From Alphaproteobacteria bacterium (GTDB taxonomy: Bacteria; Pseudomonadota; Alphaproteobacteria; UBA828): DNA of 64,000 nucleotides. The stretch covers positions 768,001-832,000 of the forward strand of contig CBDCRW010000006.1 of NCBI GenBank assembly GCA_965221125.1. Direction: 5' to 3'. The notes under the pieces are model-generated. The model was not told where the DNA came from. It did no database searches and saw only the letters and a program-made list of their open reading frames with translations. Positions 4,430 to 21,397 of the stretch are shown here, in pieces. Both the position numbers and the translations under genes were made by a program. How positions within the stretch are numbered: position 1 is the first letter of the stretch; every line of letters starts with the position of its first letter.

Positions 4430-4543
4430 ATGGTGATCGAGAAGCCAGACGGAACGAAGGTCTTGATTGTCGCGAGTGAAGCGAATGCCGAAGCCGAGCA
4501 CGATGACATCGACGCCATGATCGAGAAGGTGCCAGATCCATGA
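4430..4543 (+). CDS. 37-aa ORF translationally coupled to the integrase remnant (possibly truncated)
   Basis: MVIEKPDGTKVLIV...DP*, ATGA overlap at 4540-4543. Confidence 0.4.
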   Translation: MVIEKPDGTKVLIVASEANAEAEHDDIDAMIEKVPDP

Positions 4544-11529: not shown

Positions 11530-12355
11530 TTAAAGGCGCGGTTTCTGAGCTACCGCTTGAACGTGCCGAGCGGTGATGAGAGCACTATGTTGCTGACGGT
11601 GGACGACTGGGAGCGGGTGTGCGAACGGCCGGTGCCGCCGCGCGAGGGCCGGCCTTTGTTCGCCTACGATCTCGGGGGTGGAAGAGCGTGGTCGGCAGGC
11701 GTGGCGTTGTGGCGCAACGGTCGGGTGGAGGCGCTGGCACTGGCGCCCGGCATCCCTAGCCTTGCCGAGCAGGAGAAGCGGGATAGGGTGCCGGCTGGAA
11801 CGTATCGCAAGCTGGCACAGAGCGGCGCCCTGCTCGTTGCCGAGAGCTTGCGGGTGCAACCCCCGGCCGCGCTGCATCGCGCCTGCACGGCCGCCTGGGG
11901 GCGCCCAGAGGTGATTCTATGCGACCACTTCCGGGTGAACGACCTGCGCGACTGTGTCAACGGCGCCGAAATCGTGGCCCGTCGCACCCGGTGGAGCGAG
12001 GCGGCCGAGGATATCCGGGCGCTGCGCCAGATGGCAGCCGACGGCCCGCTGTCGTGCGAGCAAGGCAGCCGGGCGCTGTTGACCGCGTCGCTATCGGGGG
12101 CGCTGGTGCTCAACGACGACCAAGGCAACGTCCGGTTGCGGAAGAAAGGCGTAAACAACGAGGCGCGCGATGACGTGGCCGCTGCCCTGGTGCTAGCGGC
12201 GGGTGCCTACAGCCGGTCGCTGAGGACGCCCCGTCAGCGGTGGCGGTACGCAGGCATGGCGGCTTGAGCGGGAATCACCTAAAGATATCCGCGCGCACAG
12301 GTCTCGAGTCCGGTGGCGCTGTGAGGTGAACATGTCGCAAGGTAAGCCTTAGAGT

Positions 12356-13045
12356 ATGAAGCGTCTTACGAAGATCGGTCTTATCGTTACCGGGGCGTGG
12401 GCACTAGCGTTTGCCATCGTTATCTACTTTCGCGCCGGCGACGCGATCGGGATGGATTTGAATGAGTGGGGTGACTTTCTCGCAGGAGCGTTCGCCCCAT
12501 TGGCTCTGTTCTGGCTGGTAATTGGTTACTTCCAGCACGGACAAGAATTGCGACTCAATACAAAGGCACTGAAGACGCAAGAGGAAGAATTACGTCGGCA
12601 GGCAAAGGAAACAGCGCGCCTTGTAGACGCAACTCAGGAGGAGCTCGGGTTCATGCAAGAGCGCGAGCGGCGGGAAGCTATGCCCGATCTCGTACCCACG
12701 GGAGGAGGGGCGAGAACGTCAGACGGGGCATTGGTGACTGATTTGCAGAACCGTGGCGCAGAAGTGCGCGATATTGTGGTTATCTGTGAAGAATCGTACG
12801 GTCTCACCTTTAGTCCGTCCAAGATTTGGGAGCCGAATAAGATTGGACATCTTATATTACGTCATACAGAACACCCGTCACCAGACTACCCAATTTTGTT
12901 TAGCATAGAATGCGTCGACCTAGTCGGATACTTACATACTATCAATTGCGAACTCCTTGGAGACAATATGGTTCAAATACTCGGACATACTTCTAAAAAT
13001 CTGACAATGGCGGAATTAGATGAGGTCAGAGAGACTGTAGGTTGA
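12356..13045 (+). CDS. Membrane-anchored hypothetical cargo protein
   Basis: Two N-terminal TM segments, LNEWGDFLAGAFAPLALFWL, coiled coil; visibly more AT-rich than its neighbours. Confidence 0.75.
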   Translation: MKRLTKIGLIVTGAWALAFAIVIYFRAGDAIGMDLNEWGDFLAGAFAPLALFWLVIGYFQHGQELRLNTKALKTQEEELRRQAKETARLVDATQEELGFMQERERREAMPDLVPTGGGARTSDGALVTDLQNRGAEVRDIVVICEESYGLTFSPSKIWEPNKIGHLILRHTEHPSPDYPILFSIECVDLVGYLHTINCELLGDNMVQILGHTSKNLTMAELDEVRETVG

Positions 13046-13326
13046 GCCACCACCACACCCGCCTAGACCCGCGCCGCTCGCAGCGCGTGCGCCGCGCGGC
13101 GTTCCGCCGAGATGGCTACCGCTGCCGCCAGTGCGGCCGGGCCGGCCGGCTGGAGTGCGACCACATTGTGCCGCTTGACCGGGGTGGGGCGCCGTATGAC
13201 TTGGCCAACCTGCAAACGCTGTGCCGGGGGTGCCACATTGAGAAAACGGCGGGGGAGAACCGGCACCAGCCAAGCCCCGAGCAACAGGCTTGGCGGGAAT
13301 ACCTTGCGTGCATGACCAGAATGTAA
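13042..13326 (+). CDS. HNH endonuclease (packaging-associated type)
   Basis: RDGYRCRQCG..ECDHIVPL..GG..NLQTLCRGCH. Confidence 0.9.
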   Translation: MSHHHTRLDPRRSQRVRRAAFRRDGYRCRQCGRAGRLECDHIVPLDRGGAPYDLANLQTLCRGCHIEKTAGENRHQPSPEQQAWREYLACMTRM

Positions 13327-13384
13327 TACCAATACAGTTGGGTTGGTGCCGCCTGTTGGCTCCGGTCGCAGCAACCCAAGACTC

Positions 13385-13443
13385 GGGCGAGACGCCCACC
13401 GACTCGGCCGTGATGGCCTCCCCCTTCAACGCAACAAGGGAGG
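13385..13443 (+). promoter_or_regulatory. Twin-hairpin leader motif, copy 2 (before the capsid gene)
   Basis: GGGC-GAGAC-GCCC, ACCGACTC, GGCC-GTGAT-GGCC, then TCCCCC...CAAGGGAGG. Confidence 0.55.
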
Positions 13444-15097
13444 CCTCCGGCCGTGACCCCTGCACAAAGGAGACTTCGCGAATTGCGCGAGCGCCAATCG
13501 CGCGAGCGTGGCCGCATGGCCGAGCTTGGCATGGTCGATGCGCTGACCGACGAACAGCGCTCCGAACTCGACGCCATCGAAGCCGGCACGCCTGACCTGG
13601 AGCGCCAGATCAGGGCCGCCACCATCGCGGTCGATCAGGAAGATGCCGAGTAGCACACAGAGACCCGGACGCACGAGCCGGACGCCGAGCAGCGCGAGCG
13701 GATCGAACTGCGCAGCAAGGCGAGCCTGACCGAGTACCTGTTGGCGGCAGCACAAGGCCGGATGGTGGCCGGCGCGGAGGCGGAGCTACAGGCGGCTGCC
13801 GGCGTCAAAGGCATCCCCATTGAACTGTGGGACGTGCCAGAGACCCGTAACCGAGGCGACGGCCGCGAGACCCGTGCCATCACCGAGGCGCCCGGCACGG
13901 TCGGCGTCAACCTCGACCCCATCCGCCCCGCCGTCTTCGCCAACAGCATCGCGGCCCGGCTTGGCATCGACATGCCCAGGGTGGCAAGTGGCACCTATGC
14001 GACAGCGACCATCACCACGTCGCAGACTGCGGAGGCCAAGGCGAAGAGTGCTGCCATCGCCGCGACGGCGGGCGCCTTCACCCTCAGCACGGCGACGCCG
14101 AAGCGGGTGAGCGCGCGACTGGAACTCACGCTCGAGGACATCGCAGCCGTGGGGCAGGCCAACTTCGAGAGCATTCTCCGCGAGAACCTGTCGCTCGCGT
14201 TGTCCGATGAACTGGACGATCAGGCGATCAACGGCGCTGGCCAGAACAATGATCTCAACGGAATGTTCAAGGCGCTCACCGACCCGTCCGCACCGGCGGC
14301 GGGGGTGGCGAGCTTCGACACCTTCGTTGCCGCTTTCGCGGGTGGTATCGACGGTCTTTGGGCGAACACCGTCGGCGATGTGGCCATCGTCGCGGGGGTG
14401 GATACCTACCAGCTGTCTGCGAAGGTGTTCCGAGATGTGGGCACGAACAACGGCCATCGCGGCGACATCAGCTTTGCCGACTACGCCAAGGAACACTTCG
14501 GCGGCTTCTGGACGAATAAGAGGATGCCGGCGAAGGCGAACCATATCCAGCAGGCCATCCTGTACCGGAAGGGCCGGTCCATGATGGGCGGGGGCGGGGC
14601 GATGCGCACCGCCGTTTGCCCGCATTGGGGCGAGGTGTCCATTGATGACATCTACAGCGGCTCCGCGAAGGCGGAGCGCTACGTGACCATGCTGTTGTTT
14701 CGCACGTTATTTGACGCCGAATCTCCCAGATTATTTGACGTGATCGCTGCCCTGATTTCCCAGATTGCTCGGTCTTTTCCGGATCGAAGCGTAGGAGCTC
14801 ATGGTCTCTGCGGGCGGTCCGGGGTCGCTGTCTGATTGAGGTTTGGACTGGTGCTTGAGGAGAGCTGACGAGGTGTCGCGCGGCCGTCGGCGCGTCAAGC
14901 GGCTGCGCCGCTCCTGCGCTTCGCTTCGGCCCTTCGGGTGACTCGCCACCGTCCACACGACGAAGTGCTGCCATGGCCTGAAGCAAGCTTCCGGCCACGG
15001 ACTGGCCGCTCACCTGACGTAGTATCCCGGTGGAGGCGCAGCGCCTTCCGGACCGTTGGGGAAGGGTGGTTCCCGACGGCGGTTCCGGCTCGAACCC

Positions 15098-16138
15098 CTA
15101 GGCGTTGGCGGAACCGGGCTCCGGGAACCGCGGGGCCTGCGGCCGACTGCTGCCGTTGGCGGCGGCGGCCGCCGCCCGCTTGTCCGCTGCGCCTGCGACG
15201 ACGCTGTAGCCGCCCTCGGCGTTGCGCGCGACGCGACCCTCCTGGACGAGCTTTTGCAAGATTACGCCGACGGTCTTGTGCCGGGTCGCGGCGCGTTCCC
15301 GGATCTGGCGTTGCGAGAGCGGCGCCCCGGCGTCGGCGAGCGCCTTGAGAACGCGGCATTCGGGTGTTTCGGGCTGAGGCGCCCCGCCGCCGGCCGTGGG
15401 CGGCTGGCGCAGCCGGAAGGAGGGCTCCTCTCCGTCTTCCTTGAGCTCGATCTCGATGTCGTCGAGACCGCGTGCGGCGCGATGCTCGACGGTCATGAGG
15501 GTCTGCCGGTCCCGGCGGCGCAGGTAGAGGTTCGAGTCCCCCCAGGCGTGCAGCTCACTGCTGCCCCGCAGGGCCTGCCCCGGCCTCGTGGCCCCGCTCT
15601 TGCGGGCGTGGTGGACGAGGAGGACGGCGGTCTCGAAGCGGCGTTGCAGGTCGCGCAGGAAGCCGAGGATCGGGGCGACGTCCGCAACCGTGTTCTCGTC
15701 CACGCCGTGCAGGCGGACCAGGGGGTCGAGGACCACGAGGCGCGGTGCGATGCGCTCCACGGTCTGCTGCAGGCGGCGGCGGTCGTCGAGATGGTCGAGG
15801 CGCAGTGTGGGCACGTCGATGACGGCGATGTCGAGGGTCTCGAAGCGGGCGCCTGCGGCGCGGGCGATCCCCTGCAGGCGCTTGCGCACGAGGTGGCCGG
15901 CGTCTTCTGCGGCGAACAGCAGGACCGGGCCAGGCCGGGCCGGGGCGAAGTGCCGCAGGCATGGGACGCCGGCGGCGACTGCGACCGCGAGGTCCAGCGC
16001 CAGGATGGACTTGCCGCACTTCGGCTCGCCGCCGACGATGCCGACGGCCTGCTCGCCCCATAGCGTGTCCACCAGCCATTGCTGCTCGCGCGGCCGCTCC
16101 TCCAGCTCGATCGGGGCGCGGGTCGGGAAGCCGGTCAT
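15098..16138 (-). CDS. AAA_25 / RecA-RepA-like ATPase with a C-terminal winged helix
   Basis: Walker A GEPKCGKS, FAAED, LVVLDP, LLVHHARK, RGSS; C-terminal LSQRQIRERAATRHKTVGVILQKLVQEGRV; ATGA overlap with the upstream gene. Confidence 0.85.
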   Translation of the reverse strand: MTGFPTRAPIELEERPREQQWLVDTLWGEQAVGIVGGEPKCGKSILALDLAVAVAAGVPCLRHFAPARPGPVLLFAAEDAGHLVRKRLQGIARAAGARFETLDIAVIDVPTLRLDHLDDRRRLQQTVERIAPRLVVLDPLVRLHGVDENTVADVAPILGFLRDLQRRFETAVLLVHHARKSGATRPGQALRGSSELHAWGDSNLYLRRRDRQTLMTVEHRAARGLDDIEIELKEDGEEPSFRLRQPPTAGGGAPQPETPECRVLKALADAGAPLSQRQIRERAATRHKTVGVILQKLVQEGRVARNAEGGYSVVAGAADKRAAAAAANGSSRPQAPRFPEPGSANA

Positions 16139-16938
16139 GGCCGCAGTTCCTCGAGCGCGTGCTGCAGGTGGTCGGCACTGACGGTCCTCGCCTCGTCGAG
16201 AGCGGCGGCGGAGAGCGCGTAGTGGGCGATGCGGTTGATCTGGCGCGGCAGGCCGCGCGCGCCCTGGAACAGGGCCTCGACGGCGGGCTCTTCGAACAGC
16301 GGCAGTTCGCATCCCGCGAGCCTGAGGCGGTGCTTGATGTAAGCGTCGACCTCGTCGCGGTCGAGACCGCTCAGGTGGTGGCGGACGACGAGGCGCTGGC
16401 TGAGGGATTCGTGCATGGCCATGGCCAGGCGGCGCCTGAGCTCGGTCAGACCGACGAGGACGAGGCACAGGCGCTGCTCTGCATCCATGGCGAAGTTGGT
16501 GAGCAGGCGCAGGTCCTCAAGGACGTCGTTGCGCAGATGATGGGCCTCGTCGATGACGAGGACCGGCAGCTGCTTGGCCTCGGTGACGAGGCGGGAGATC
16601 TCGTTTCGGATGGCCTGATAGGCCGAGGCGCGGGAGCGCTCGATGGGCAGGCCGATCTCCCACGCGATCGCCTTGTACATGTCGAGCACGTTGCCCGTGG
16701 TCAGCGAGACGTAGTGGACCCGGTAGAGGCCTGGATGAAGCTGCGCGGTCAGATGCCGGCACACGGTGGTCTTGCCGGAGCCCACCTCGCCGGTGAGCAG
16801 GCCGATGCCGCGCAGGTCGATGAGGTGGCCGAGCCTGGCCTCGGCCTCGCGGCGCGCGTTGGACTCGAACAGCTCGTCGGTCTCTGCCGGGGTCTCGAAG
16901 GGCAGGCGGGTGAAGGCGAAGTGGCGCAGGTACATCAC
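16135..16938 (-). CDS. ExeA-type AAA+ ATPase (transposition helper)
   Basis: HFAFTRLPF, Walker A GEVGSGKT, Walker B VIDEAH, GLPRQIN; ATGA overlap with the transposase. Confidence 0.88.
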   Translation of the reverse strand: MMYLRHFAFTRLPFETPAETDELFESNARREAEARLGHLIDLRGIGLLTGEVGSGKTTVCRHLTAQLHPGLYRVHYVSLTTGNVLDMYKAIAWEIGLPIERSRASAYQAIRNEISRLVTEAKQLPVLVIDEAHHLRNDVLEDLRLLTNFAMDAEQRLCLVLVGLTELRRRLAMAMHESLSQRLVVRHHLSGLDRDEVDAYIKHRLRLAGCELPLFEEPAVEALFQGARGLPRQINRIAHYALSAAALDEARTVSADHLQHALEELRP

Positions 16939-18263
16939 TCGTCCTCCTTCTTGTCCTTGAGGTTGCGCATGGCCAGCGGCGAGGGCGGAGGCTCGGGCGC
17001 CGGATCTTCGGCCTCGATCTCCCTGGCCGGGTAGGTGCGCCTGACGGCGGTATTGGCGTAGGCGTCGAGAGGGCTGGCCTTGCCGGCCGGCTTGCCGTCA
17101 TGGACCACGTCGAGAGGGCGCGAGGGCGGCGCGGCCGGGTCGTAGCGCAGGATGACGTTCTGACCCACCAGGAGGGCGTCGACCTCGTAGACGCGGCCGT
17201 TCAGACTAACGGTGCGGTCCTTGTAGACACGGCGCCTGGCCTCGAAGAGGAACAGATCGTCGAGGTCCATGGTGGCGTCGGGATAGCGCACGCCGGCCGA
17301 GGCCAGCGCCCACTGCTCAAGCGGGGTGCGCCCCTCGTCGAGGCCACGATGCGGGCTGTTGTGATACTCCCCCTCGATCCAGGCCCAGAGGCTGCGGTTG
17401 AGCGCCTCCAGGCTGTCGACGTCATCGCCGAGGTGGCGGAGCCAGCCGGCCCGGAGGGTGCGGAAGAAGCGCTCGATCTTACCCTTTCCCGCTGGCTGGA
17501 ACGCCCTTGCGTGAATCAACGCAACGCCGAGCCTGGCGCAGACCAGGGAGAGATGACGGGAGCGGTAGGCGCTTCCGTTGTCGACGTACAAGCGGGCCGG
17601 GAGGCCGCGCCGGATCAGCGCGTCCTTGAACACCGGCAGGAACGCCGCAGTGTTCTCCGCCATGGCGAAGGCGGCGAACGGGATGACGCGGGTGGCGTCG
17701 TCGATGAAGGCGATCAGGTAGGTCTTGCGCCGGGTTCGGCCGTGCCGGACCTTGGGTCCGTGCATGACGTCGCTCATCCACATCTCGCCGGCATGCCGGA
17801 AGGCGAAGCGGCGGCGATCCGCCCCGTCGGGCGGCTTCTTGTCGAACAGGCCCTCGCGGCTGAAGAGGCGGTGCACGGTGGACGAGGCGAGCGGGTGGTC
17901 GATACCCTCCTCCTTGACCTTCTGGATGATGGCGCGAACCGACAATGCGTCGTTCTCGGTCTTCAGCGCGATGAGGCGCTCGGCGACCTCGGGCGGCAGC
18001 CGCCGGGGCTTCCCCCGGTCGGTGCGGGGCTTGGGGTAGAGCGCGTCGAAGCCGCCGTAGCGGTAGTCCTTGATCCAGCGCCGCATGGTCTCGGCGGCGA
18101 CCCGGGTCCTGGTGGTTCCGGGGATCGTGTAGGTCTTCTCGGCTTTGGCGCGCATCATCGCGCCGGCACCCGGTGCACCCACGGGCAGATGCACCAGATC
18201 GGCGATGACGTCGTATCGGAAGAGCGCGATCTGTTGGCGAAGGTCGTCGTCTGAGCTGTTCAT
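16935..18263 (-). CDS. DDE transposase (rve core, Mu-like C-terminal domain)
   Basis: N-terminal HTH, WMSD, YVDNGSAY, GKGKIERFF, YHNSPH, RRVYKDRTVSLNG. Confidence 0.92.
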   Translation of the reverse strand: MNSSDDDLRQQIALFRYDVIADLVHLPVGAPGAGAMMRAKAEKTYTIPGTTRTRVAAETMRRWIKDYRYGGFDALYPKPRTDRGKPRRLPPEVAERLIALKTENDALSVRAIIQKVKEEGIDHPLASSTVHRLFSREGLFDKKPPDGADRRRFAFRHAGEMWMSDVMHGPKVRHGRTRRKTYLIAFIDDATRVIPFAAFAMAENTAAFLPVFKDALIRRGLPARLYVDNGSAYRSRHLSLVCARLGVALIHARAFQPAGKGKIERFFRTLRAGWLRHLGDDVDSLEALNRSLWAWIEGEYHNSPHRGLDEGRTPLEQWALASAGVRYPDATMDLDDLFLFEARRRVYKDRTVSLNGRVYEVDALLVGQNVILRYDPAAPPSRPLDVVHDGKPAGKASPLDAYANTAVRRTYPAREIEAEDPAPEPPPSPLAMRNLKDKKEDE

Positions 18264-18308
18264 GGTGCGATCCTCGTTCAGGGACTCCCTGGCCCCGGGA
18301 TCGTCACG

Positions 18309-18944
18309 CTACGAACTCTCCGGCGGCGGGTCCGGCCCCGCCCGTTGTTGGAACTGCGGTTTGCGATTCCCCACGTCGATGCCGTGGGGTTGGAAGCCCA
18401 GAGGCGCGGGTAGCGTCCGGAGCTGCCCGGCGACCAGGCCGCGCAGTTCCATCAACGCGCTGTCGCTCTTCAGACGCTCGCGCACCGCGCTCATGGTGGG
18501 CGCGCAGCCCGCGAGCAGGTCGGGGATCAGGCCGATGACGCGCACAAGCGCGTCGTGCACAAGCTTCAGCCTGCGGCGGATCCAACGCACGGCGCCGGGA
18601 AGCTCGATGGCGTCCTCGTCCTCGGGGCAGCGCACCTCGTCCGCTGCCTCCTCCAGGCTGCCGGCCTCCTCCGCCACGACAACAACCGCTTCCAGCGCAT
18701 CGAGCGTGCCCGGCAGCCGCGCCGCCAGACAGTCGGCCAGCAGGCCGATGGTCGTATGGCTCTCACGGCAATACCAGCGAGGAACCCTTGCGCCGGGCGG
18801 GGTCTTCCGCTCGTAGGTGCCGTGGCTTGCCACAGAACATCCGCCGTGCGGGTGATTCGGGCAGCGCTCAAGCCTTGCGTCGCGCCACGCCTCGGTCTTA
18901 ACGTATTCCTCGCTGGTGAGCCCCGTTTCGTAGCGAAGCTGCAC
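18309..18944 (-). CDS. Transposon accessory protein with a putative Zn-binding motif (DUF6431-like)
   Basis: CPNHPHGGC..HGTYERK..RWYC..HTTIGLLADCLAARLPG; first gene of the transposon operon. Confidence 0.65.
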   Translation of the reverse strand: MQLRYETGLTSEEYVKTEAWRDARLERCPNHPHGGCSVASHGTYERKTPPGARVPRWYCRESHTTIGLLADCLAARLPGTLDALEAVVVVAEEAGSLEEAADEVRCPEDEDAIELPGAVRWIRRRLKLVHDALVRVIGLIPDLLAGCAPTMSAVRERLKSDSALMELRGLVAGQLRTLPAPLGFQPHGIDVGNRKPQFQQRAGPDPPPESS

Positions 18945-19413
18945 CGGCCCTGGCCCGGCGGGAGTTCCGTCCCCCGGGCCTCTCTTTGTCGTTCAGTGAG
19001 AGGCCAAGATTACGGACGCTCCCCGCCGCCGCCAAGCTGTGGAGCCGTGGACGCGTCCTGCGGACCGATCGGCGTCCTGCGGACCGTGTGGACAGCCCGT
19101 GGACAAGCTGGCGCTTGCCCACCGCCTGACCACACTCGCCGATCTCGCGCCCACCGCTCCACAGCTTCAACAGCAATGAGGATTCTGCTGAGGATCAAAA
19201 AAATGCCGCAGGCAGCGTCCTTCCCGCACTCGGCCACCATCCCGGGAAATCCACCAACCAATCAAAGTGAGAAAAAAACCCGTGCTTCTATCCGGCTAGA
19301 CCGGAAAACAACACATGCACGTCTTACTTGGTGACGTGATCCTCGTTCAGCCCGACGCCTACGCCCAGGTGGCATTCCGCGTCTCGACCTAAGCGGGCGC
19401 CCAGGGGGCGACC

Positions 19414-19986
19414 ATGGCCGAGTATCCGATCTTCGACGGGGCGCTGGAGCTGCGGCGCTCCGGAGGCGCCCGCACGCTCCACGGCCGTTTCAACTACGGC
19501 AGCACGGCGACTACCCGTGACCGGGGCCGAGTGCGGAAGGAGCGGTTTCAACCCCGCGCCTTTCGCTACGCCATCGACCAGGATCCAGAGCGACGCGTCG
19601 ACCTTCTGGTCGGACACGACTACGGGAAGCCGCTCGCGAGCCGGCAGGCGGGCACGCTCGACATCGCTGACGGCGACGACGCGGTGACGTTCACGGCGCG
19701 CCTGCCCGAAGACCCGCCGACATGGGTCCGCGATGCCGAGCTTGCCATCGCAGCCGGCTTGATGGTTGGGCTTAGCCCCGGCTTCACCGTGCCGCCGACA
19801 TCGGTGGTGCCGGACGCGGAGGTGCTTGAGGACGAGCCGGGCAACCCCGGCGTCCAGGTGCGCGTCATTCGCGAGGCGGTGCTGCGAGAGTTCAGCGTGG
19901 TGACATCGCCCGCCTACACGGACGCGGCGGTCGACATCCGGTCGGACCTTCTCACACCCCCTCGGAGGCGCCGGCTATGGCTGTAG
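19414..19986 (+). CDS. HK97-family prohead protease
   Basis: LLVGHD, GLSPGF, LREFSVVTSPAY. Confidence 0.9.
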   Translation: MAEYPIFDGALELRRSGGARTLHGRFNYGSTATTRDRGRVRKERFQPRAFRYAIDQDPERRVDLLVGHDYGKPLASRQAGTLDIADGDDAVTFTARLPEDPPTWVRDAELAIAAGLMVGLSPGFTVPPTSVVPDAEVLEDEPGNPGVQVRVIREAVLREFSVVTSPAYTDAAVDIRSDLLTPPRRRRLWL

Positions 19987-20333
19987 CAACGTTGTCGCCG
20001 TGGCCTACCACACCGGCTGCGCTCACGGCCGCGACGGCGTGCCTGAAAGCCGCCCTCGGCGAGGATGACGATGCGACAGCGCAGCGGCTCGGCGCATCCG
20101 CCGCTGCGCTGGTAGAGCGCTACGCGCCGGATGCGCCGCATCCCGTCAAGAACGAAGCGGTGATCCGTTGCGCGGGGTGGCTGCTCGGGGCGCCATCTAA
20201 CGGAGTGCGTCAAGAGGCGGTCGGGCCGCTGAGTGTGGAATACGCGCCTTCGATGTTTTCTGCCCTGCGTCATAGCGGCGCGATGGCGCTGCTCTCGCCG
20301 TTCAAGGTGCGGCGTGCGGGAGCCATTGGCTAA
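19977..20333 (+). CDS. Probable head-tail connector (gp6-like)
   Basis: 118 aa, AAALVERYAPDAP..VKNEAVIR..ALLSPFKVRR; lies between protease and portal. Confidence 0.6.
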   Translation: MAVATLSPWPTTPAALTAATACLKAALGEDDDATAQRLGASAAALVERYAPDAPHPVKNEAVIRCAGWLLGAPSNGVRQEAVGPLSVEYAPSMFSALRHSGAMALLSPFKVRRAGAIG

Positions 20334-21397
20334 TGCGTTGGCCTTGGCAGAAGCGAGAGACGCGGGACAGCGGCGGTGACTTCGCCGATGCCGTTGTGCG
20401 GCTGATCGAAGCACGGGCTGCCGGCACGGCTGCGGACGCATCGAGCACGGCGGCGGTCGAGGCGGCAGCGGGAGCGCTGTCTCGCGCGTTTGCGAGTGCC
20501 GAGGTGGTCGCGGAGGCTTGGGTTGCCGAGACCGTCACGCCGGCCGTGCTCGCGCAGATAGGGCGCGACCTGGTGCGCGACGGCGATAGCCTCCACGTCA
20601 TCCGCATGGGCGCGGACGGGGTGGCGAAGCTGATCCCGTGTTCCTCCTGGCATTGGGAGGGTTCGCACGACCCGGCCAGCTGGACCGTGCGAGCGACAGC
20701 CTACGGGCCGTCAACGTCCACGACTTGGAACTTGCCTGTCTCGTCCGTCGTCTTCGTCCGCTGGGGCGGCACACCGGGGCAGCCCTACATAGGGACATCG
20801 CCGCTGTCCTGGGCGCATACGACGGCGCGGCTACAGTCCGAGGCCGAGCGCAGTCTTGCGGACGAGGCCGGCGGGCCGGTCGCCCAGCTGCTCGCCGTGC
20901 CGCAGGACGGCGGTGACGGTGGCGAGGGAGACCCGCTCGCGACCCTCAAAGGCGACCTGGCCGGCGCGCGCGGTAAGGCGCTCCTTATCGAGACCGTGGC
21001 AGCAGCATGGGGCGAAGGCCGGACAGCGGCGCCGCAGCGAGACTGGATTGCGTCTCGCCTCGGGCCAGCGCCGCCGGACGCAATGGTGAAGGTGGCCGAT
21101 GCCGCGTTCGCGCGCGTGCTCGCCGCGTGCGGAGCGTCGCCAAGCCTATTCACTGACGCCGATGGCACGTCGCAGCGGGAGGCGTTGCGGCGCTGGCACC
21201 TTGGCACGGTGCTACCGCTGGCCAAGCTGCTCGAGCACGAGCTGTCGGCGAAGTTTGAAACGCCGGTGCGGCTCACCTTTGACAGCTACCCGAAGGACAT
21301 GGTTTCAAGGGCGCAGGTGTTCGCCAAGCTCATCGCGGCCGAAGGCGTGTCGGTTGAGAAGGCGCTAGAGGTCGCGGGGCTGGTGGACGCCGAGTAG
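20333..21397 (+). CDS. Phage portal protein
   Basis: 354 aa; DLVRDGDS, VVFVR..YIGTSPL, VLAACGASPSLF, TVLPLAKLLEHELSAK fit the HK97-type portal pattern. Confidence 0.75.
   Translation: MRWPWQKRETRDSGGDFADAVVRLIEARAAGTAADASSTAAVEAAAGALSRAFASAEVVAEAWVAETVTPAVLAQIGRDLVRDGDSLHVIRMGADGVAKLIPCSSWHWEGSHDPASWTVRATAYGPSTSTTWNLPVSSVVFVRWGGTPGQPYIGTSPLSWAHTTARLQSEAERSLADEAGGPVAQLLAVPQDGGDGGEGDPLATLKGDLAGARGKALLIETVAAAWGEGRTAAPQRDWIASRLGPAPPDAMVKVADAAFARVLAACGASPSLFTDADGTSQREALRRWHLGTVLPLAKLLEHELSAKFETPVRLTFDSYPKDMVSRAQVFAKLIAAEGVSVEKALEVAGLVDAE

Follow-up and report, generated by a model that had tools for sequence, protein, structure and literature searches.

A helicase module exchanged between transposon backbones occupies the fourth gene slot of a Tn6049-type element in an alphaproteobacterium

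What would a compact transposon do with a second ATPase that resembles a plasmid replicative helicase? The question is raised by a 4621-bp transposon at positions 14693..19313 of the window analysed here, a 64,000-nt stretch of the genome of an Alphaproteobacteria bacterium (assembly GCA_965221125.1, contig CBDCRW010000006.1, positions 768,001 to 832,000 of the forward strand). Between its ends, which are fixed by 20 copies in the same genome, the element carries four open reading frames (ORFs), all on the minus strand: a Zn-motif ORF, a DDE transposase gene, the gene for an AAA+ ATPase and, in the fourth slot, the gene for a RepA-like helicase. The picture that we put forward, and that we regard as probable, if only just, is that this fourth slot would act as a replication-recruitment module for copy-in transposition.

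Read along the minus strand, the first ORF (18309..18944, 211 aa) encodes a divergent protein of the DUF6431 type, in which an N-terminal Cys/His beta domain precedes a helical, possibly helix-turn-helix (HTH), domain, and the second (16935..18263, 442 aa) encodes the DDE transposase, with HTH_32, rve and Mu-transpos_C domains. The third, here called A22 (16135..16938, 267 aa), is an ExeA/MuB/TnsC-like AAA+ ATPase with a clear AAA_22 domain (PF13401, E = 5.7e-27), and the fourth, here called A25 (15098..16138, 346 aa), is an RSF1010 RepA-like (AAA_25) ATPase/helicase with a C-terminal winged helix (PF13481, E = 9.4e-37; MarR_2, 24.8 bits). Domain searches bear out this set of four products as named in the original prediction, which had also held the last three genes to be coupled by ATGA overlaps. 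That is so for A22 and A25, but the junction between the transposase and A22 genes reads GTGATG (a GTGA or a TGATG overlap); a further 45 nt lie between the Zn-motif ORF and the transposase gene.

The resemblance of A25 to RepA extends over the whole set of ATPase motifs. In the alignment with the RepA structure in the Protein Data Bank (PDB 1g8y, E = 9.6e-10), the residues GKS, AED, LVVLD, HHARK and RGSS stand opposite RepA motifs that we take to be Walker A, the catalytic Glu, Walker B, the His sensor and the Arg finger region, respectively. In a single-sequence AlphaFold2 (AF2) fold of A25 (predicted local distance difference test, pLDDT, 42.8), only the winged helix (residues 257-315) was confident. 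The transposase clears the cut-off for PF09299 (Mu-transpos_C; 31.6 bits, cut-off 21.7), and its best solved relative is TnsB of a CRISPR-associated transposon (CAST; PDB 7svw, E = 5.2e-7), while the relatives of A22 are weak ones, namely MuB (PDB 8xvb, E = 1e-3), the PADLOC TnsC model (E = 9.5e-4) and TniB (20.8 bits, cut-off 22.4). These domain and structure matches uphold the earlier view of a complete Mu/Tn7/Tn5053-like transposon in which a transposase and its AAA+ partner are joined by a helicase-like second ATPase. None of the four ORFs matched a TnsA endonuclease, a TniQ/TnsD selector or a TniR resolvase in Pfam, NCBIfam or PADLOC. A complex prediction for A22 with A25, made with a separate alignment for each protein and without controls, scored 0.00 and counts neither way.

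The Zn-motif protein had no Pfam match even at E <= 10, and 961 representative clusters match it. Its link to DUF6431 needed profiles: BLASTP against one DUF6431 protein, and against the Zn-motif ORF of the second backbone type described below, was not significant, whereas a profile of 38 family sequences aligned with the DUF6431 proteins of plasmid relatives at an hhalign probability of 96.8% (E = 2.8e-10, 145 columns), and four of the 38 members gave weak matches to PF20020. An AF2 model of the protein (pLDDT 91.2) shows the Cys/His-bearing beta domain and the helical domain; fold searches with it returned nothing at E <= 0.001 in Foldseek, and in VIA-align a best Z of 4.4 to assorted HTH domains, which is too weak for a fold name. 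The protein is probably a DNA-binding regulator or an end-recognition factor.

Is the element as a whole a functional unit? The genome (4.58 Mb, in a 7-contig assembly) holds 20 copies of it at 100% identity and with identical ends; 17 are uninterrupted and three are split by a 1453-bp IS256-like insertion sequence (IS). These identical copies confirm the limits first proposed, including length, coordinates, ends and a CATGC duplication. The tips, TGTTGTTT at 14693-14700 and AAACAACA at 19306-19313, form an 8-bp perfect terminal inverted repeat, and CATGC stands on either side of them at 14688..14692 and 19314..19318. A perfect 5-bp duplication flanks 15 of the 20 copies, a 4-bp duplication two and a 4-of-5 match one. 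The other two, an inverted pair on contig 4 (C4:671960-676580 and C4:716887-721507), have exchanged flanks (GAGGG/CCCCG), which implies an inversion of about 40 kb, brought about either by recombination between copies or by intramolecular replicative transposition, the two being indistinguishable by flanks. The element is an autonomous DDE transposon that is active now or has been very recently, and its insertions are made at a staggered cut of 5 bp (rarely 4 bp), with little target preference. At the 20 sites there is no clear motif beyond a weak preference for G at positions 4-5 of the duplication (11 and 8 of the 15 perfect-duplication sites), and in a crude ORF test 85% of the insertion sites lay within open frames of at least 300 codons, against 91% of random positions.

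These sites bear on a possible role for the extra ATPase in target choice or immunity, for example in steering the element to replication forks or to other mobile DNA. Tn7-like elements do target via accessory proteins, and the window copy is inserted in a prophage gene. Given that the insertion sites resemble random positions, and that the closest solved relative of A25 is a replicative helicase and not a target selector, we consider such a role very improbable.

To which family, then, does the element belong? Ten relatives on plasmids of Proteobacteria, Firmicutes and Actinobacteria have a DUF6431-type or similar-sized ORF, followed by a DDE transposase gene and then an AAA ATPase gene, and the window transposase is at most 39.6% identical to theirs. 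In five of the ten loci (pBB2, Pandoraea, Burkholderia, Acidithiobacillus and Metabacillus) a small ORF of 65-86 aa follows the ATPase gene. An AAA_25 gene is absent from all ten; tblastn of A25 against 72,556 plasmids found no match, and a megablast search of plasmids with the whole element found none either. The Streptomyces relative has an extra 92-aa ORF (L096:4856-5134) between the transposase and ATPase genes, so that actinobacterial members differ in layout.

The plasmid relatives recall Tn6049. As far as the available excerpts of its descriptions go, this is a 3.5-kb element with 12 copies in Cupriavidus metallidurans CH34, each with a 'gspA' ATPase gene (PMC2864759); on the P. aeruginosa plasmid pHS87a its inverted repeat measures 12 bp (TGTGCaTaAGCA) and its direct repeat 4 bp (PMC4739549), and its transposition module 'could not be categorized' (PMC6210171). 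In those excerpts Tn6049 is like the window element in being compact and multi-copy, in its 'gspA'/ExeA-type ATPase, in inverted repeats that start with TGT and in direct repeats of 4-5 bp, while the likeness in the DDE transposase and the DUF6431-type ORF is seen in the plasmid relatives only and not in the excerpted Tn6049 descriptions. The contents differ too: against the 3.5 kb reported there for Tn6049, and the fourth ORF of 65-86 aa in relatives, the window element has 4.6 kb, with a 346-aa RepA-like helicase and a structured motif. Partial matches of the 12-nt Tn6049 inverted repeats to three plasmid relatives were chance-like only.

On these comparisons the window element is a Tn6049-type transposon, placed by its plasmid relatives (at most 39.6% identity) and by the published description of Tn6049 rather than by the sequence of Tn6049 itself. 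The original prediction had suggested a possibly undescribed transposon family, but wholly undescribed the family is not, since the three-gene core has the Tn6049-type layout of the ten plasmid relatives; the kind is named already, common on plasmids and essentially unstudied. In the excerpts that a literature search returned (the ISfinder and TnCentral catalogues lying outside its scope), no helicase or primase gene is described in Tn6049-type elements. A raw tally of 93 A22 tblastn records as a measure of family size was dropped because the A22 matches include non-transposon ExeA genes in XrtA/PEP-CTERM loci.

How does the helicase gene come to be in such an element? We gathered 80 A25 loci from public genomes and further loci from genus relatives, giving 97 A25 gene copies, and in 96 of them A25 directly follows an AAA_22 gene (the remaining locus is cut off). 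Two backbones carry it. In type 1 (32 copies) the Zn-motif ORF, the transposase and A22 are 73-99% identical to those of the window; type 2 (64 copies) has the ends TGAGCG...CTCA, duplications of 4-6 bp and a Zn-motif ORF of its own, and its transposase and A22 are 25-29% identical to those of the window. Between the types, A25 is 67-80% identical (dS 0.58-0.64, dN/dS 0.27-0.31). Slower evolution of A25 was considered as the cause of this contrast and rejected: within type 1 the four genes diverge alike (79-83% identity, dN/dS 0.22-0.32), and conservation of A25 therefore cannot explain it. At the DNA level, the two types are alike from 6 nt ahead of the A25 start codon to 226 bp past its stop, about 180 bp short of the tip, and because the similarity spans just that stretch we define the module as the A25 gene plus the non-coding DNA downstream of it. 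By sequence comparison, this helicase module has been swapped between two transposon backbones, and the dN/dS values indicate that A25 is under purifying selection like the core genes. In one metagenomic protein of 597 aa (P0004), AAA_22 and AAA_25 are fused, either as a natural fusion across the ATGA overlap or through a sequencing frameshift.

A gene that comes and goes in this way might be selfish or beneficial cargo without a role in transposition, whether as a cassette of its own, as an anti-defence or host-manipulating factor or as a leftover of plasmid or phage replication. Cargo would account for the absence of the module from the ten plasmid relatives and the plasmid collection, for its movement between backbones as a unit and for a motif that also travels alone. 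It would leave unaccounted for the ATGA overlap between the A25 start and the ATPase stop, the existence of the 597-aa fusion, a purifying selection equal to that on the core genes and the intactness of A25 in all 20 genome copies; moreover, the sampled alternatives in the slot are a Toprim gene or small ORFs only, which are not typical cargo, and PADLOC gave no defence-system match. We consider cargo unlikely. Whether the AAA_25 gene is only sporadically linked, as a passenger, had been asked at the outset, and the answer is a divided one: it is not a family-wide core gene, being missing from the plasmid relatives and swapped between backbones, but its dN/dS, its overlap with the ATPase gene and its intact state speak against a casual passenger.

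The other occupants of the slot suggest what the module might do. Across the sampled loci the slot contains a small ORF, the helicase with the motif, the helicase with a Toprim gene or a Toprim gene alone. A type-1-like element (L083; transposase 53% identical) has a 295-aa DUF3991+Toprim gene in fourth place, overlapping the ATPase stop, and in 22 of the 64 type-2 copies, from at least 7 assemblies, the helicase gene is followed by a Toprim gene, giving five-gene elements of about 5.2 kb. The Toprim protein matches the DnaG-like model of PADLOC (E = 3e-9). The motif was found in none of nine Toprim-bearing loci, and a genome with 27 helicase+Toprim copies (G434) had one motif match; on these counts Toprim and motif replace each other in the slot. 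The small slot ORFs of the proteobacterial plasmid relatives all end in PF (4/4), with acidic residues before it in three of the four: L089:6161-6358 (...LDLPF), L095:5600-5824 (...IDDPF), L118:3295-3531 (...IDDPF) and L119:3294-3491 (...PHPPF). These ends resemble the acidic C-terminal tip of the single-stranded DNA-binding protein SSB, which docks replication and repair proteins. Elements of this kind also occur nested: at L083:7001-12080, a type-1 element is cut within A25 by a Toprim-bearing Tn6049-type element, itself in a solute-binding-protein gene.

Pairs of helicase and Toprim genes, together with the fact that RSF1010 RepA is a plasmid replicative helicase, would also suit a plasmid-like phase. 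Here the transposon would be excised as a circle, the helicase-winged-helix protein would act as initiator and helicase on a cis origin (the motif or nearby repeats), Toprim would be the primase in sister elements and the copy number would go up before reintegration. The fusion of a helicase to a DNA-binding winged helix does recall initiator-helicases, such as phage P4 alpha. However, neither iterons nor an initiator from a known family turned up, the 20 copies all lie integrated between target duplications, and the motif is missing from some intact elements; to our knowledge, MuA/TnsB-type transposases are not known to make circles. Such a phase is in our judgement improbable, more so than cargo.

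The non-coding part of the module contains a structured motif of about 150 nt (14868..15016, minus strand; model R1), in which a hairpin comes first and then an 18-bp long-range stem, with three GNA/GAA-looped mini-hairpins inside it. It forms the last 140-150 nt of the stretch shared between the types, across which its DNA is 84-86% identical. When 16 distinct copies are aligned, 95.9% of cells are paired and nine pairs show compensatory changes; none of 500 shuffles reached any of five measures, and slid controls paired at 25-48%. Without comparison there was no signal, as single-sequence folding of the 408-nt end region gave z-scores of 0.36 (RNA) and -0.12 (DNA). Rfam, searched over the element, returned no family for the motif and two chance-level matches only, and a covariance-model search of the genome with R1 matched only the 20 element copies. 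The motif, a well-supported new structured element without an Rfam family, is thus real and structured as judged by covariation and, from its distribution given below, mobile by itself and not strictly needed.

How might these parts act together? In the replication-recruitment picture, the transposase would nick the 3' ends only, because there is no TnsA-like second nuclease (neither a second nuclease nor a resolvase is found among the four ORFs), and would join them to target DNA presented by the AAA+ ATPase, as in Mu. The branched intermediate would then be copied, in copy-in transposition, and the fourth slot would supply or recruit replication fork machinery at this strand-transfer intermediate. 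In the window element this part would fall to a self-loading helicase, with the winged helix as its DNA-recognition part, together with a structured cis element, which a Toprim primase-like protein would replace in sister elements; the slot of classical Tn6049-type elements would be taken by a small protein instead. Copy-in transposition would square with the bursts seen in the genus, where four other genomes have 13-68 helicase-gene matches. Two roles had been proposed for the extra proteins, and of these replication or repair of the intermediate fits better, given the Toprim genes that share the slot, than target selection, for which the crude test gave no site preference.

Several observations weigh against this picture. 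The copy-in step is one that we infer; the exchanged-flank pair is the product expected of intramolecular replicative transposition, but homologous recombination of two independent insertions explains it equally well. The helicase is not needed family-wide, as its absence from 10 of 10 plasmid relatives and from 72,556 plasmids makes plain. The Toprim protein is weakly DnaG-like (TIGR01391, 15.6 bits) and had no match in a sequence search of the PDB, and the SSB-like tail of the small slot ORFs, which may be a docking peptide for replication/repair proteins, is known from four C-termini only. Nor is the motif tied to the helicase: a survey of the genus finds it in 13 of 21 genomes, five or six of which have no A25 match. 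It is dispensable as well, having been lost from a type-1 element whose A25 is 93% identical (L011), and 3 kb from that same element a lone motif (L011:681-830, minus strand) lies 160 bp after a tyrosine recombinase gene (L011:989-2041, minus strand). In the genome G428 (L123:2047-4419, with an inverted twin in L124) the motif lies about 245 bp after a RecD2-like superfamily 1 (SF1) helicase gene. In the three contexts that can be read (A25, tyrosine recombinase and RecD2-like helicase) the motif is co-oriented with the upstream gene each time; a 3'-UTR RNA would account for this, and for the G-U wobbles on the gene-sense strand, no less well than a DNA site would.

What matters most in the module might be the motif of about 150 nt and not the helicase: a structured 3'-UTR RNA (a stabiliser, a processing site or a small regulatory RNA), picked up by several unrelated mobile genes. 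Strong covariation, the sense-strand G-U pairs, the shared orientation with upstream genes and the presence of the motif in genomes without A25 all agree with this. On the other side stand the lack of an Rfam family, the GCGNAGC mini-hairpins, which suit DNA as well, being classic stable DNA hairpins, and the alternation with a Toprim gene, which a pure mRNA stabiliser leaves unexplained. We find this reading, which does not depend on the other alternatives, plausible, though not quite probable, and for the motif itself a nature as RNA about as likely as one as a DNA site. In G428, which has no A25 match, the motif-bearing repeat measures at least 5.4 kb and its two copies are 99.98% identical; one of them abuts gyrA.

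A more specific form of the replication-recruitment picture can be put forward tentatively. The slot of Tn6049-type elements would be a dedicated replisome slot, filled in sponge-associated lineages by a private primosome that would consist of a self-loading RepA-like helicase and, as its partner, a Toprim primase or a structured priming/loading signal; with this primosome the strand-transfer intermediate would be replicated without the host restart pathway. We hold this to be a speculative extension; if true, it would explain the bursts to tens of copies per genome.

Which known systems does the element resemble? Like phage Mu, it has a transposase with rve and Mu-transpos_C domains, an AAA+ partner (with MuB as the best solved match), 5-bp duplications, TG...CA tips and several subterminal sites at asymmetric ends. 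It differs from Mu in its own helicase, its lack of phage genes and its much smaller proteins; the Mu intermediate is replicated via the host restart proteins PriA and DnaB/DnaC. With the Tn7/Tn5053/Tn552 group it shares a transposase that matches CAST TnsB, an ATPase that weakly matches TnsC and TniB and a 5-bp duplication, but its four ORFs have no TnsA, TniQ or resolvase domain, and its insertions give no hint of site-specific targeting. Of the NCBIfam models, that of IS481 (NF033577) fits the transposase best, and some plasmid relatives are annotated as IS481. The score of 201.9 bits is nevertheless below the cut-off of 224, and IS481 elements are single-gene insertion sequences, whereas the window element has an obligatory-looking ATPase partner and two further genes. 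For IS21, the transposase model NF033546 gave 43.1 bits against a cut-off of 160, and A22 has no IstB_IS21 match.

RSF1010 offers a parallel on the replication side, as A25 aligns with RepA across all ATPase motifs and sister elements pair the helicase with Toprim or with a hairpin-rich cis element. RSF1010 replicates by means of the RepA helicase, the RepB' primase and ssi single-strand initiation sites, a set that this pairing recalls. RepB' is not a Toprim primase, and the Toprim protein of the sister elements is hence not RepB'-like. A RepC-type initiator is also missing, A25 has an extra winged helix and the setting is that of a transposon rather than a plasmid. Casposons, Polintons and Helitrons are likewise mobile and bring part of their replication machinery with them; they rely on Cas1, retroviral-type integrases or HUH nucleases, in combination with a polymerase or an SF1 helicase. 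The elements described here differ from such self-synthesising transposons and Helitrons in combining a Mu-type DDE transposase with a superfamily 4 (SF4)-type helicase, with or without Toprim, and in having no polymerase.

The distribution of the element is patchy. Among 401 genomes sampled across the class, the transposase (E <= 1e-30) was found in two, its own genome included. Within the genus, nine of 21 genomes gave A25 matches, and in four of these the numbers were 68, 27, 25 and 13. The titles of the assemblies with related loci name Alphaproteobacteria, Dehalococcoidia, Poribacteria, Acidobacteria, Gemmatimonadota, Acidimicrobiales and Chloroflexota, a range that implies horizontal spread. 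The hand-over of a Mu-type branched product to a replication fork has been worked out mainly in phage Mu, and a family of small transposons whose single exchangeable slot takes a helicase, a primase-like protein or both would be a natural experiment on it. Such a family would also be a bacterial counterpart of self-synthesising transposons. By their numbers and by breaking genes at near-random sites, the elements shape these genomes and make them harder to assemble and annotate.

The element ends carry further repeats. At the helicase-side end (14693..14770), the terminal TGTTGTTT is accompanied by two subterminal copies each of TTATTTGACG and TCCCAGATT, which are likely transposase binding sites, if putative ones; the Zn-ORF-side end (19240..19313) has the AAACAACA tip and a GGATTTCCCGGG site about 62 bp inward. 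The sequence GATTTCCC is placed 61/62 bp from both tips, and the distances of GGATTTCCC(G/A)G-like sites are conserved in five related elements; the subterminal repeats noticed earlier are borne out. Upstream of the genes (19034..19167) lie a 22-nt inverted repeat (19034-19055 and 19146-19167, 90 nt apart) and a 15-bp direct repeat (19053-19067 and 19072-19086), candidate promoter/operator elements of the four-gene operon.

The gene interrupted in the window encodes an HK97-type major capsid protein (PF05065), whose 5' part lies at 13741..14692 on the plus strand and aligns with an uninterrupted homologue, and whose 3' part, comprising the last 24 codons and the stop, lies at 19319..19392 on the same strand. 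When the element and one CATGC are removed in silico, the capsid ORF continues to the stop at 19390-19392, and the restored product aligns end to end with that of an uninterrupted capsid gene of the same genus (57% identity over 349 columns), as expected from the claim that removal restores the capsid frame. Along the plus strand of 11557-21397, the order is HNH, interrupted capsid, prohead protease, a 118-aa ORF and a portal-like gene (29 bits, below the Pfam cut-off), which is unusual; because its neighbours encode an HNH endonuclease, a prohead protease and a portal-like protein, the insertion target can be called a prophage-like region.

The 1453-bp IS256-like IS that splits three copies of the transposon is present in 14 identical copies in the genome, with 8-bp duplications. 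The three inside the element (C6:194952-196404, C5:758404-759856 and C7:276233-277685) correspond to element positions of about 58-65, 81-94 and 4443-4450, all within 180 bp of the transposon tips (binomial P = 0.0026 when all of the element is counted; about 2e-6 when only its terminal 200 bp are, a choice made post hoc), which suggests that this IS prefers the end regions of the transposon.

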